The translations under genes and the position numbers were made by a program. DNA of 53,849 nt, counting the filler, from Jimgerdemannia flammicorona (lineage: Eukaryota): assembly GCA_003990765.1 (NCBI GenBank). It is 3 parts of 3 records of this genome, joined end to end, with 100 filler letters (N's around TTAATTAATTAA, not from the genome) between each part and the next. Parts side by side here need not be neighbours in the genome. Positions count along the whole stretch, not along the records: positions 35,971 to 53,849 come from RBNJ01002376.1; 2 more parts are not named here. One strand, written 5' to 3'. This document shows, one piece after another, positions 48,038 through 52,538 of this stretch (position 1 is its first letter; the number at the start of each line of letters is the position of its first letter). The notes under the pieces are model-generated. The model had not been told where the DNA came from. It saw only the letters and a list, made by a program, of their open reading frames with translations, and did not search any database.

Positions 48038-49938
48038 TTACAACCAAACGTTCGGCAACGGCACATGTGGCCCAAAGTCGTGGCGTTCTGCTGTCGAGCA
48101 TCCAGGGTTTTCTTCGTTCGCCCATTCGGCACCGCAGGCTTTGCATACCGGCTTGCACCCGTCGCTCTCGTCAAACATGGCGGCCACGGTGGGATTGCCG
48201 TGATTCTTGACATCGCATCCACACATGTGCCGCGTGACGCACCCTTCTTTGCCCTCGTCCTTTTCGCAACATTTGTAGACAGTTCTACACCCATTAATCC
48301 GGCCTTCGGGGTCGCCATCGGCATCGGCACCGCAGCAGCTGAATTTTTTCCGACACATTTCGATATTTCCGCAGCAGGTGTATCTCTCCTTGCAGCCGTC
48401 CCCTCCGAGGTTTTGACAGCACGAACGAGAACACCCAGGCGAATCGGCGGCCCCCCCGCAACAGGTGTAAGTGTTTCCACAAGGCTTCTTCCCGTCGCAG
48501 CAGCTGTACACCTCATCGCACCCTGGACCCGTACCCTTGCAGCAATCGTAGACGCATCCTTCGGAATTTTTGGGCTTATCACAGCAACCATAAGACCCGG
48601 AGCACGAACCAGTACCACATGCGTAATACTCCTCGCATCCAGCACCCATGCGATCGCAGCACATATATACACACCCTCCGCTGCCACCAGATCCGCCACA
48701 GCAACTCCACTTATAACGAGGATCAATCATGTCGACTACCTCGGTCAAAATTTTGGGTATACCAAAACCTAGGAGATTCAAACCCGCGCCAAGATCACGC
48801 GCATCTTCCACCTGTCGGCCTGTGTGAGTCATCCCCATGTCTTTGTGTCGGCGGAGCTTTTGGCAGGTATCGCTGTGCTTCCCGATGAACCCGCGGCTGT
48901 GAACGAGTCGGTTGGACATATGTCGTTTCACGATTATCGCGCTCGAATCATGCTCCTTGCGGAGATGCGGCATTCGGTGAACCAATTCTGTCGAGGGGTG
49001 GTAACTTTCTTTGTTCGGATTCGGGTGATAAGGCACGATATAGGAGTTTCTTGCATGCGCTTTCATCGTGCCCTTCGGGTGAACCTGCGTGAATCCTGGC
49101 TGGTGCGCCATGATCCTTTTGACATGGCAGCGGGAACTCGCAATCCTTGGGTCCGTCACCTCACCACACTTTTGACACGTCGCGTCTTGGAAAAGGATCT
49201 TGATCGGGTGTTGTTCGTGTCCTTGCATCAGCTCGATGTACTTGGGAAGCAACTCCTCGTTCGTGTAGATACCGCAATTAGCCCGTTCGTCAGGATTGAG
49301 GCGGCGATACACCGATCTTTCTGGGAGTCGATCGTATAACCAAACTTTGAAAACTCCCAGGTTGATAAGAATGTCATGATTCGTCCCTCGTTGAGCACCT
49401 GGATAGCAGGCGGTTTTGATAGCGTTGACGCATTGGTCGTCGATCTCCAGGCCTTTGATGACGACGATGACATTGTCCCAAACGTTCCCATTGTGGTACG
49501 AGGCAAGGTCGCGGATGAGGCCGGCCTGCCGCTGGAACGTGGCCTTGGCACGATCCGTAGTATCGACGAACCAAAGGATGGTGTGCACCCACTCGATACG
49601 CGGTTGGGCGTCTCGCATCGTTATCAGAATGCTCCGCGCCGTGTCCTGGTCGGCCTTGTCAGGGTTGGAATCGTTGAAGCCAGGGGTGTCGATGTAGACG
49701 AAGCGGTTGTCAACACATCGGTGGACCTTCACCTTATTGGTCATTGAACTCGGTCCATGGCCTACTTCCGCCGTAGCCCCGAAGACCGTTGCTGTAAAAC
49801 TCTTGCCGTTTCCCGTATCGCCGATCGCGAGTACACATTTCACTGCATGTTCAGAAATATTAGATGAAGGCGGCTTAGTGAGACACGGTAACACATAGAG
49901 TTATTGTAAACCTCACCACTCAGTCCTGATGTTACCAT
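48038..49938 (-). CDS. AIG1/GIMAP-like (TRAFAC) GTPase with His- and Cys-rich repeat tail, paralog 1
   Basis: Intact 618-codon ORF with G1 GDTGNGKS, G2 Thr and G3 DTPG, then CxxC, His repeats and YxCC...GC repeats. Start uncertain: candidate ATG 49938 with intron ~49916-49844. Confidence 0.85.
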
Positions 49939-50205
49939 TACGTATTAAATTGAGTACGTTCAAAGTCCAAAGTGAAATATCAAGCTAAAGCGCAGAGAGA
50001 TACTTGAGCAGGTACTAAGAAGGGTGAGAACGCAGCAGGCGCTGACACCATGGGGAGGGAAATGAGCTTGACCTATTCAACTTGTTTTGCTCATAAAAAT
50101 AAATAAATAAAACACGTTTCATGCCTATTTTGGATATTGGGATACCAGTGATTGACAGCGCCCACTGAGGTTATCGAAAACTTGTAAGGGACCTGGACCA
50201 TCCTA

Positions 50206-50399
50206 GTTTGATATCTATAAACTGGCATGTCTAAAGAATTTTATTCTTGTTACTAAAGTGCGCCTCTTCGACTGCAAAACATAATAAAAATCATGAGAGA
50301 ACAGCGCGCCGAGTTTAACCAGAAATATCGCAAACTCCTCGATTGGGATACAAGGATGCAAGGCATCTGGACGTTTGACATCTATAAACTGGCATGTCT
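50206..50399. repeat. Duplicated 27-bp motif in the divergent intergenic region
   Basis: GTTTGA(T/C)ATCTATAAACTGGCATGTCT at 50206-50232 and 50373-50399. Confidence 0.8.
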
Positions 50400-50936
50400 T
50401 CTGACGTTTAAATGGAAGAAATCATATGGTACTGATTAACTAGTCTTAGTTTGATTGCCACAAAAAAAAAAATTCCCACGAGTGCATTGATCACTGTGAT
50501 TGACCCGAAAAATCTCAGGGTCCCGCAGTTCTTCTTAATACCAAAAATCGCTGGCTGGCTCTTATACCATAATCAGCTGGTTCTTGTCCGCTTGATGAGT
50601 TCAATAAGTTGAGATGGATACGTTATAATTATGTTATTCACACGGCTAATGGGGATCGCTTTTCATTTTTGTGGCTGACAGTAAATCTGGCCAACATCCG
50701 AATACTGGGGTTTCTGCGTAACTTCCATTCGGATCCGCGGTTGATGATCATATGTATTGACGCCAGTCCTTATCGTATGTCGGCGCTAACGGCATGGGAA
50801 AGCCCAAATCTTTTGTGCGACCTATTCCATGTTCTAGGTATTCGGCAATGTGGCAGAACGGGAAGTCTGTAACTCACTGGGAAACGTTTCTAATTCACAA
50901 TATCAAATTACCGACAGTGGCTTTAAATAATAATAA

Positions 50937-52538
50937 ATGACCAGTAAGTTGGTTTTATTACAACCGAAATAGTGGCCTTTCCAATGCTAACAAATACAGT
51001 ATTCTTCTCCAGCTCGATACGTACTCGCTATCGGAGACACTGGAAATGGCAAATCCTACACGGCACGGATCTTCGGGGCGCAGGAAGCGGTCGTCGGTCA
51101 TGGTCCTGCCTCACAAACTCAAGAGGTGAAATGTCACAAGTGCGAAAATGGTCGATACATCTACATCGACACTACGGGATTCGATGACTCCGACCCAACT
51201 AGCACCGACCAGAATAACGCACGCGCCATCCTTATGTCCATGAAGGACAACACACCGCCAATAACCGAGGTTCACACCATCCTCTGGTTTGTCAATGGCA
51301 AAGATCGTACAACCGCTGCACTTCAGCGACAGGCAGGGTTTATTCGCGACCTCGCCCGATATAATGCGGGTGACGTATGGAGAAATGTCATCATTGTCAT
51401 AAAAGGGTTGGAAGTGGACGATCAGACAGTAACGGCCATTATGGAGGCAGCCAGTCGCACACCTCAAACGACCTCAACGAACACTGTCCTGCCTCAAACG
51501 GGCGTATTGAAAGTGTGGCTATTTGATCGACTCGGTGAAGGCTCGCCTCTTCGACGGCTACCTGACGACACACTCAACGAGGCCGGCATTTACAAGGCGC
51601 ACCAGCTGCTCCCCAAGTATGAGAAACTTATGCAAACGCACGGCCAATACCCAATCACAATCCTCTTTCACAATGCTACATGCCTCAAGTGTGGCGAAGT
51701 CACCGATCCTCGTCTAGCAAGCCCCAAATGTCACGCCGACCTCGCAAAGATGCACATGCCAGATTACAAGTACATCCATTCGCAGGCCCTGGTTAGAACT
51801 CACGCAAAAAATGCAGCGATTTCGAGCTATCATCCACAGAGTTGGCATAATCGCCATCCATCGTCCACCCGTGTCCACATCGAAGTCTCCAGCTCGTACC
51901 ACCCTGGTCACACGATACGGTACCATACCCGCGGCAGTAACTCCGCGCACAAAGGAACGTTCAAACGAACTTACCACAAAGGTAGCAGGAGATACCGCCA
52001 AGATGGCGACTCTTACTACGATTGTTGCTTCAAAGACCAATACTGTGCTGGTAGATGGGACTGTTGCTACAACGCGAATCAATATTCGACGGGATGCGTC
52101 TATGCCTGCTGTAAGTCGAACGACAGCGGATGCGAGTACCGTTACTCCTGCTGTGGTTACAAGACGCCTTGCAAGCAGAAGTATAACTGTTGCGGTTCGG
52201 ACATCAGGTCCTCTGGCTGCGTTTACTCCTGTTGCTACAAAAATGATGGCGGCTGCGCGATAGAGTATTACTGCTGCAAGGGGACCACGCCGTGTCAGCG
52301 GAAATACAGCTGCTGTGGCAAGGACGTGCGGGAGAGCGGTGGATGTAGGGAGGTATACAACTGTTGTAAGGGCGACCCCGGCGTCAGAGGTTGTATCATT
52401 CTCCATGCTTGCGGATGTTCTGTGGGGGCACTTGGGTGTAGACAAGTATGCAAGGCTTGCAAAATGCCTTGGGGAACCTCACAATATCCCGGCTGCACAA
52501 CGATTTCGAAACATGACTACGGGTCGTTGGCTCGATGA
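50937..52538 (+). CDS. AIG1/GIMAP-like GTPase with His/Cys-rich tail, paralog 2
   Basis: ATG ACC A|GTAAGT, intron 50944-51012, then TRYVLAIGDTGNGKS in frame with ORF 51126-52538. G3 is DTTG. Clearly homologous to paralog 1. Confidence 0.87.

Follow-up and report, generated by a model that had tools for sequence, protein, structure and literature searches.

A head-to-head pair of GTPase genes

The window analyzed here, that is, the whole stretch of 53,849 nucleotides (nt), filler included, comes from the Jimgerdemannia flammicorona assembly GCA_003990765.1 and joins three parts of three records. Its last part (positions 35,971 to 53,849, from RBNJ01002376.1) carries two genes in a head-to-head arrangement, paralog 1 on the minus strand at 48038-49938 and paralog 2 on the plus strand at 50937-52538; no third copy was found in the window. 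Their products, P0001 and P0002, are 42% identical over the full length, and each consists of a GTPase (G) domain followed by a long tail rich in histidine and cysteine, the architecture of which is the subject of this study. The closest named match of paralog 1 is a hypothetical protein of J. flammicorona (Endogonales), with 99% identity.

Both genes start with a very short exon. That of paralog 1 has 22 nt (49917-49938, minus strand), comprising seven codons and one base from the ATG at 49938, and is followed by a phase 1 GT..AG intron of 74 nt (49843-49916) and then by a single long exon running to the stop at 48038. This intron was confirmed by a metatranscriptome contig (run X3, record 10) that covers 50008-49917 and resumes at 49842; the RNA joint 49842/49917 omits 74 nt, the ends of which read CT..AC on the plus strand. 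Exon 1 of paralog 2 has only 7 nt (ATGACCA, 50937-50943, plus strand) and precedes a phase 1 intron of 69 nt (GTAAGT ... CTAAC ... CAG, 50944-51012) at the same position as the paralog 1 intron, so that both introns lie four codons upstream of LAIGDTGNGKS. Most of paralog 2, including this intron, is without read cover in runs X1 to X3, and its splice sites were assigned on sequence; the spliced start, MTTRYVLAIG, is the start of the public model P0004.

A contig of 1,779 nt from run X1 is colinear with 47913-49691 with zero differences, and this run thus shows no intron in the tail of paralog 1. The depth of run X1, the library type of which is not on record, is about 28 over paralog 1 and 0 to 3 outside. 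Two public models from two J. flammicorona strains, P0003 and P0004 (corresponding to 48038-49894 and 51126-52538), switch frame within the tail and end in an unrelated frame, while every Glomeromycotina relative conserves the Cys-rich frame. In addition, the start of P0003 lies within the intron of paralog 1 shown by RNA. The public gene models of both genes are thus wrong in the tail. No signal peptide was found in either protein, the P-loop starting about 12 residues from the N terminus, and the cysteines should therefore reside in the reducing cytosol, a compartment in which they would be expected to bind zinc and not to form disulfides.

The G domains resemble Toc34 and GIMAPs

The G domain of paralog 1 (GDTGNGKS, DTPG) with its helical extension occupies about residues 1-215 of P0001 (49196-49842, minus strand) and was delimited by its motifs and a weak MMR_HSR1 match, while that of paralog 2 (GDTGNGKS, DTTG; P0002 residues 1-215, 51013-51659, plus strand) was delimited by its motifs, an AlphaFold2 model and Foldseek. 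Both proteins have the P-loop GxxxxGK[ST] and DxxG, and G7, G10, G12, K13, S14, D51, T52, and G54 are invariant in alignment A1. In the AlphaFold2 model of P0002, the predicted local distance difference test (pLDDT) of the G domain is mostly 85 to 97, falling to about 57 at residues 151-160. A Foldseek search with the full-length P0002 model gave Toc34 (3bb1_G) and GIMAP7 (3zjc_A), each with an E value of 1.1e-06. The nearest G-domain folds were Toc34 (3bb1, 1h65), GIMAP7, GIMAP2, and GIMAP5, with E values of 1e-6 to 1e-5; target template modeling (TM) scores ranged from 0.44 to 0.61 among the best 25 matches, and GBP1 was among the weaker G-domain matches. Neither window protein matches the Pfam family AIG1 (PF04548, cutoff of 27 bits), which 32 of 72 relatives match at an E value of ≤1 (best, 1.5e-07) and which is recorded as an annotation for four relatives. 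On the basis of motifs and predicted fold, we assign both genes to cytosolic GTPases of the Toc34/GIMAP (AIG1-like) kind, with a putative nucleotide specificity.

The tails combine a His arm with a Cys arm

In both proteins the tail follows the same order: an anchor, C-x2-C-x12-C-H, then a His arm, a tip, a Cys arm, and a terminal His. Tails were parsed by chaining His residues from the anchor His at spacings of 6 to 11 and by grouping cysteines as a close pair plus a third Cys, an isolated two-Cys pair counting as one unit.

In paralog 1 (minus strand), the base anchor lies at P0001 residues 222-239 (49124-49177), and C222, C225, C238, and H239 are invariant in A1. The His arm (residues 240-339, 48824-49123) contains 13 His, 12 of them on a period of 7 to 10 residues; together with the anchor His, these make 13 periodic His, the total being 14. 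The successive spacings are 8, 8, 10, 9, 7, 4, 5, 10, 7, 8, 10, and 7, and the 13 His fall within the 140 residues after the anchor. The tip, or spacer, comprises 40 partly hydrophobic residues (LGAGLNLLGFGIPKIL..., residues 340-379, 48704-48823; best 19-residue Kyte-Doolittle mean, 1.28) and aligns with the AWTVRVxTxGIVNP segment of Glomeromycotina relatives. The Cys arm (residues 380-581, 48098-48703) contains 38 Cys in 13 units, namely, 10 of the type CC..C, one with two Cys (ACGTGSC), one CGC..GC, and one CKAC..GC. The terminal segment (48038-48097) holds the closing His (RHDF, H587), which is invariant in A1, and the stop.

In paralog 2 (plus strand), the anchor lies at P0002 residues 223-240 (51681-51734); alignment A2, of 72 sequences, shows no variation at C223, C226, C239, or H240, and the pLDDT of the anchor is 93 to 97 in an AlphaFold2 model of the tail only. 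The His arm (residues 241-321, 51735-51977) has 12 His in 96 residues, 10 of them on period, so that with the anchor His 11 of 13 follow the period of 7 to 10 residues. The tip is a basic turn of 15 polar and aromatic residues (KGSRRYRQDGDSYYD, 51978-52022). It is followed by the Cys arm (residues 337-494, 52023-52496), with 33 Cys in 11 units (nine CC..C, one CGC..GC, and one CKAC..GC), the last four of which have a pLDDT of 85 to 97, and by the last segment (52497-52538), in which the closing His (KHDY, H500) precedes the stop.

The parser thus gave 13 periodic His versus 13 units in paralog 1 and 11 versus 11 in paralog 2. An earlier note made from the DNA alone had described this layout (CxxC...C, a His block, a spacer, a block of three-Cys units, and a final His in RHDF or KHDY), which is indeed present in both frames. 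Its manual counts of 13 units and about 13 spaced His (14 in total) for paralog 1, and of 11 units and about 11 spaced His (13 in total) for paralog 2, were reproduced, with the qualification that one unit of paralog 1 has two Cys. Of 5,000 shuffles of each arm, none attained the observed His chain of paralog 1 and 4 attained that of paralog 2, and the observed number of regular Cys3 units came up once for paralog 1 and never for paralog 2, indicating that the pattern of the tails is not due to chance. His makes up 9 to 12% of the His arm and Cys 17 to 19% of the Cys arm, versus 1 to 3% in the G domain.

A further contig of run X1, of 217 nt, matches two pieces of the region coding for the Cys arm of paralog 1, 48352-48402 and 48537-48562, with 130 other letters in place of the intervening 134; it may come from an allele or a diverged copy, present in that sample, whose Cys units differ.

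The tail module is widespread and not tied to the G domain

At an E value of ≤1e-3, 15 named relatives were found, from Jimgerdemannia and seven genera of Glomeromycotina (Diversispora, Entrophospora, Ambispora, Funneliformis, Glomus, Paraglomus, and Rhizophagus), all with the same layout. Several paralogs occur per genome; for example, four of the named matches come from Diversispora epigaea. A profile of the named relatives was searched against 1.84 billion representatives and returned 1,256 proteins at E values of ≤1e-3, 257 at 1e-10, and 78 at 1e-30, part of the score coming from the G domain. Homology searches with the 72-sequence alignment and with the tail of P0002 alone gave 10 and 2 proteins, respectively. 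Among 162 proteins gathered, the anchor pattern was present in 122, in 105 of which the parser resolved both arms, the out-of-frame models P0003 and P0004 having been dropped beforehand. Endogonales and Glomeromycotina share the pattern, and its conservation extends far past them.

The consensus of the His arm is [YIVF]-H-P-G (536 periodic His), with a spacing of 8 in 232 of 536 cases and of 7 in 169. The Cys arm follows [KR]-[YWF]-x-C-C-x8-G-C, with some units of the type C-x2-C...G-C. Among 417 CC units, 232 read CC-x8-C, 83% have a Gly before the third Cys, and 83% have an aromatic residue two positions before the CC.

The module is self-contained and not tied to the G domain, since it also follows PH and RCC1 domains. 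P0084, a protein of 1,814 residues, has a PH domain at residues 185-284 and the anchor at residue 318, and its arms carry about 28 periodic His and about 29 regular units, while P0151 carries RCC1 repeats upstream of the tail module. Beyond its ladder, at residues 1060-1230, P0084 has four W-x-C-x2-C...C-x2-C elements, which we take to resemble RanBP2-type zinc fingers, and then a SecA DEAD-like domain.

His and Cys3-unit numbers are coupled

If each His of one arm were matched by a unit of the other, the two numbers should change together, and the earlier note had expected the two blocks to lengthen together with a slope of about 1. Crude counts, i.e., all His of the arm versus one-third of the Cys, gave a correlation coefficient (r) of 0.79 for 97 tails and of 0.88, with a slope of 0.74, for the 82 tails ending in a C-x2-C..C unit. 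Comparing periodic His with parsed units in all 105 tails, r was 0.82, with 42 tails having equal numbers and 70 being within one; for the 71 tails ending in a C-x2-C..C unit, r was 0.86, with 32 equal and 53 within one. We defined as complete those tails that end in a C-x2-C..C unit and have a His at most 12 residues past the last Cys (n = 55, representatives being mutually <50% identical). In these, r was 0.88, the ordinary least-squares slope was 0.84, and the reduced major axis slope was 0.95, close to the expected value; 29 tails had equal counts and 44 were within one. By comparison, permuting the His counts among the proteins 10,000 times gave a mean of 6.7 equal counts and a maximum of 16. 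The complete tails range from 2:2 to 16:16 (P0037), with P0133 at 13:13, and the PH domain protein P0084 has about 28:29.

Since counts may be shared through kinship, we computed independent contrasts on a FastTree tree of the G domain, which included 52 complete-tail proteins with at least 170 residues before the anchor and from which P0043 and P0084 were left out. The coupling was retained (r = 0.87, slope = 0.80, P = 9e-17; 51 contrasts). Among 17 sister pairs, 5 were unchanged, 4 shifted the two counts the same way (among them +12/+11 and +5/+3), 1 shifted them in opposite directions, and 7 altered one count only, by one. No tandem repeats were found at the DNA level in either window tail, indicating that recent duplication of units is not the cause of the matching numbers. 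Overall, the numbers of His and Cys3 units are coupled at about 1:1 from 2 to about 29 rungs, a more than 10-fold range.

The Cys units resemble one half of the BTK motif

The BTK motif combines a His part, YHP, with a Cys part, aromatic-x-CC-x8/9-GC. The Pfam BTK family (PF00779) matches 6 of the 72 aligned relatives at an E value of ≤1. With 27.1 bits, the match of P0112 exceeds the gathering score (24) and covers positions 9-28 of the 30 in the profile; P0149 and P0084 score 20.3 and 17.4 bits, respectively. Overall, the matches span from about positions 9 to 12 to positions 25 to 28, which correspond to the aromatic-x-CC...GC half, while the YHP of the His half is presumably the counterpart of the His-arm consensus. 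The ligand set is also alike, comprising a His, two paired Cys, and a third Cys preceded by Gly. In P0084 the module directly follows a PH domain, as the BTK motif does in Tec kinases.

There are nevertheless clear differences. In BTK, the His and the three Cys adjoin within about 30 residues and pack on the PH domain, whereas in the tails the His halves, numbering 2 to about 29, stand in one arm and a matching number of Cys halves in the other, and the window proteins have a G domain upstream rather than a PH domain. Because the His and the Cys units lie in separate arms, all sites but the innermost must form between distant segments, and because the two halves are not contiguous, the tail falls outside the BTK family as defined by Pfam. 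The comparison with BTK made in the earlier note holds for the ligand set and the local sequence.

Tips and predicted structures point to a hairpin

The segment connecting the two arms varies widely, from 4 residues to about 60 membrane-like residues. In 19 of the 105 tails, only 4 to 18 residues separate the last periodic His from the first Cys unit, and such a short return makes a parallel register impossible. In another 19, the tip is strongly hydrophobic (19-residue hydropathy mean of at least 1.75), mostly uncharged, and rich in Gly and Ala, five of these tips having uncharged runs of 40 to 60 residues with the look of a membrane hairpin. Judged on sequence, both the short and the membrane-like tips would require that the end of the His arm adjoin the start of the Cys arm. 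A shorter hydrophobic segment is found in the tip of paralog 1 and of the Glomeromycotina proteins. Comparison of the two paralogs showed that they are colinear over the seven base-proximal His and the last ten Cys units and that they differ beside the tip, in both arms.

We also observed that the long Gly/Ala-rich, membrane-like tips are mostly found on short ladders of 2 to 6 rungs (P0082, P0091, P0096, P0097, P0046, P0095, P0124, and others), the longest ladders having short or weakly hydrophobic tips.

The AlphaFold2 model of the paralog 2 tail alone has a mean pLDDT of 73 and a predicted TM score (pTM) of 0.50. Between two confident ends, the pLDDT is 44 to 69. Confidence is confined to the first 60 and last 80 residues, i.e., residues 215-274, with the anchor and H240, H247, H255, H263, and H273 (pLDDT of 83 to 97), and residues 425-504, with the end of unit 7, units 8 to 11, and the terminal His (pLDDT of 85 to 97). 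A His-rich segment would hardly be predicted with such confidence without a partner, and the distal Cys arm is the sole other confident part. DSSP assigned strands just before the His residues (243-246, 251-254, 259-262, and 269-272) and, in mirrored order, in the linkers after Cys units 10 to 6 (476-479, 461-464, 445-448, 428-431, and 415-418), with a step of 8 residues on the His arm and of about 14 on the Cys arm; in the full-length model, strands occur at mirrored rungs 1, 3, 7, and 8. If the anchor His is in register with the last unit, H247 with unit 10, and so on, the Cys triad of the anchor is left for the terminal His, in line with the base closure proposed in the earlier note. Of the elongated hairpin foreseen in the earlier note, the models thus bear out a confident base and mirrored strands, whereas they leave the middle rungs at low confidence.

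Searches for known folds returned no relative of the tail. No Pfam family covers the tail as a whole, the tails of P0001 and P0002 gave no Pfam match, and a sequence search against solved structures gave no match for P0001 or P0112. With the tail-only model, Foldseek found no match at an E value of ≤10 among 350,542 chains, and VIA-align found no chain with a Z score of at least 2 among 48,161 representatives. Since models without a clear relative usually reach Z scores of 7 to 8, the lack of matches fits an extended, nonglobular shape, although these negative results exclude no fold because half of the tail model is uncertain. The earlier note had considered that the tail might prove to be an annotated family with another fold; no such family or solved fold was matched.

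A probable nested zinc ladder and its alternatives

Taken together, sequence and models suggest that the tail is probably a nested zinc-ladder hairpin, in other words, a split BTK motif, with zinc bound by His-to-unit pairing. This is the reading given in the earlier note, and each of its proposed checks that was run came out in its favor. The chain would leave the G domain via the C-x2-C...C-H anchor, run outward with a His at about every eighth residue, turn at the variable tip, and return as an arm of Cys3 units, the outbound His residues and the returning units forming nested Zn(His)(Cys)3 sites, one His per unit. At the innermost rung, the site would approximate an ordinary local BTK motif, and the base would be closed by the Cys triad of the anchor and the terminal His, giving about 14 zinc sites in paralog 1 and about 12 in paralog 2. 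Such a structure would be a stiff, two-stranded, zinc-stapled rod, the length of which is set by the number of rungs.

Several observations weigh against this proposal. Among the 55 complete tails, 26 have unequal counts and 11 differ by at least 2; some of these inequalities come from the crude parser or from faulty gene models. The Pfam BTK profile does not match P0001 or P0002 at an E value of ≤1, and where it matches relatives, the match never takes in the His position. In both AlphaFold2 models the middle of the ladder has a pLDDT of only 42 to 69, and the support drawn from these models consists of pLDDT and strand positions. Moreover, His spacing and the length of the partner unit did not covary in the nested register (r = -0.08; 180 rung pairs in 28 equal-count tails). 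The same comparison in the parallel register gave an r of -0.06, with an isolated r of -0.34 at a shift of +2 that we regard as noise, and this test is uninformative since loop lengths evidently do not set the rise. A two-chain prediction of P0002 residues 215-330 against 331-507 with four Zn scored 0.00, with alignments unused and the fold of the partner uncertain, and counts neither for nor against pairing. Concerning the G domain, relatives often have T-K-G-D at the G4 site, while both window proteins have I-K-G-L (about residues 127-132 of P0001, 49445-49462, and 128-133 of P0002, 51396-51413), and this replacement of Asp by Leu makes guanine specificity uncertain. Finally, any function is inferred from the architecture and from the relatives only.

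The same data could be explained if the tail consisted of two unrelated metal-binding regions that do not pair, a largely disordered His-rich segment and an array of local Cys knuckles or metallothionein-like clusters, the numbers of which are coupled by selection on tail length. The low confidence in the middle of both arms, the lack of covariation between His spacing and unit length, and the restriction of BTK matches to the Cys half all agree with this explanation. Length scaling does not, however, predict equal counts in 29 of 55 tails over 2 to 16 rungs, nor a slope near 1 after correction for phylogeny; the proximal His arm is predicted confidently together with only the distal Cys arm; and the Cys units, which offer three ligands without a fourth and have conserved aromatic residues, are unlike metallothioneins. 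We therefore consider this explanation unlikely. A still smaller probability is given to pairing between molecules, with the His arm of one chain on the Cys arm of another, in swapped dimers or filaments. Count coupling and BTK likeness fit such pairing equally well, GIMAP and Toc G domains do dimerize, and no result distinguishes within-chain from between-chain pairing, but tips of 4 to 18 residues and tips resembling membrane hairpins bring both arms of a single chain next to each other, and AlphaFold2 is confident in both base segments when given a single chain.

Pairing without a ladder, in a parallel register or in a compact globule rather than a rod, appears slightly less probable again. 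It is favored by the low pTM of the tail-only model. A parallel register would, however, need a return as long as the ladder itself, while the spacer of paralog 2 has 15 residues and that of 19 of the 105 tails has 4 to 18; the strand positions are mirrored between the arms rather than parallel; and compact models usually obtain weak matches, whereas none of the 48,161 chains reached a Z score of 2 and Foldseek gave none. Lastly, it is very improbable that the Cys-rich frame is not a real product, through an artifact of annotation or frame, or that it encodes a secreted, disulfide-rich domain. It is true that P0003 and P0004 leave this frame and that other long open frames overlap the region, but all Glomeromycotina relatives keep this frame, as do more than 100 distant representatives, the X1 contig follows the tail colinearly from end to end, and the 5' intron is confirmed by spliced RNA; a secreted domain is opposed by the lack of a signal peptide.

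Comparison with known systems

GIMAPs have helical or coiled-coil extensions followed by a C-terminal anchor, and the G domains of GIMAP and Toc proteins dimerize in a nucleotide-dependent manner. The proteins described here share with GIMAP, AIG1, and Toc34 proteins the fold of the G domain and, in many relatives, a hydrophobic segment C-terminal to it, as in GIMAPs. They differ in that the window proteins score below the Pfam AIG1 cutoff and in their His/Cys ladder, with which no GIMAP has been described. The passages searched in two papers on the AIG/GIMAP family (PMC8857920 and PMC7053062) do not mention zinc, cysteine, or BTK; coiled coils and transmembrane segments are described in PMC7053062. 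The earlier note knew of no GTPase with such an architecture, and we likewise found none in the full-text literature, a body that leaves most subscription journals outside.

Nested zinc sites on a hairpin occur in the Cys-rich domain of DnaJ/Hsp40, in which CxxCxGxG motifs 1 and 4 and motifs 2 and 3 are paired. That domain is, however, of fixed length, with two sites, all-Cys ligands, and a different motif; no CxxCxGxG motif of the DnaJ type was found in either tail, nor was there a Pfam or fold match to it. A functional analogy may be drawn with the stalks of dynamin-like and guanylate-binding GTPases, which are also elongated elements C-terminal to the G domain leading toward a membrane-binding tip, but these are alpha-helical bundles without metal, unlike the predicted zinc-stapled, two-stranded ladder. 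The BTK-type zinc site and the GIMAP-like G domain are thus known parts, while their split, nested, and variable arrangement is new.

Possible function and significance

The rod could serve as a stalk of defined length, keeping a GTP-regulated and probably dimerizing G domain at a constant distance from the partner of the tip. Where relatives have a hydrophobic hairpin tip, this partner would be a membrane, which paralog 1 might also touch peripherally. Cys3His sites release zinc upon oxidation or zinc shortage, and the rod could therefore also unzip upon redox or zinc stress, thereby switching the attached domain.

Kinship with GIMAP/AIG1 proteins and a neighboring gene with a Crinkler domain (see below) point to a role in cell-autonomous defense or conflict. 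The company in which the module is found would fit conflict or immunity, given the variation in length, the several paralogs per genome, the Crinkler neighbor, and the existence of proteins combining TIR and BTK motifs, which have been reported from sea anemones, Phytophthora (an oomycete), and Guillardia (a cryptomonad) (PMC5094078).

More tentatively, the tail could define a new class of repeat proteins, a metal-stapled rod of tunable length built from n + n half-motifs with 2 to about 29 nested rungs, serving eukaryotes as a modular stalk behind GTPase, PH, RCC1, and perhaps TIR domains. If so, it would represent a design for stiff rods distinct from coiled coils, solenoids, and beta-helices, and one in which two complementary arrays of half-sites must keep equal numbers through evolution. 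It would also give an evolutionary context to the single, long-known BTK motif and could explain matches to that motif in odd architectures such as the TIR proteins (PMC5094078). For the immunity-associated GTPases of the GIMAP/AIG1 kind, the mechanism of which is poorly understood, it would be a new kind of stalk, found in fungi that are plant symbionts (Endogonales and Glomeromycotina) and in which cell-autonomous defense is almost unstudied. Protein designers might find in the module a ruler of programmable length.

Other genes and features of the window

The open reading frame (ORF) adjoining paralog 1, at 46475-46954 on the minus strand, encodes an N-terminal domain of Crinkler effectors (PF20147, E value of 7.8e-17). 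Downstream of it lies a short ORF without an assigned family (46077-46373, minus strand), and together with the GTPase pair, these two ORFs look like a small conflict-type gene cluster. Farther away, an ORF at 23066-23770 (minus strand) encodes TPR repeats and a TTC3/DZIP3 domain (PF19179, E value of 5.5e-09) and is flanked by two large ORFs without a Pfam match (21331-22932 and 23820-25868). A retroelement aspartyl protease is encoded at 11322-12119 on the plus strand (PF13975, E value of 1.3e-13). The G+C content of the window swings between 22% and 54%, with AT-rich blocks at about 26 to 28 kb and 38 to 40 kb, and the window looks rich in repeats.

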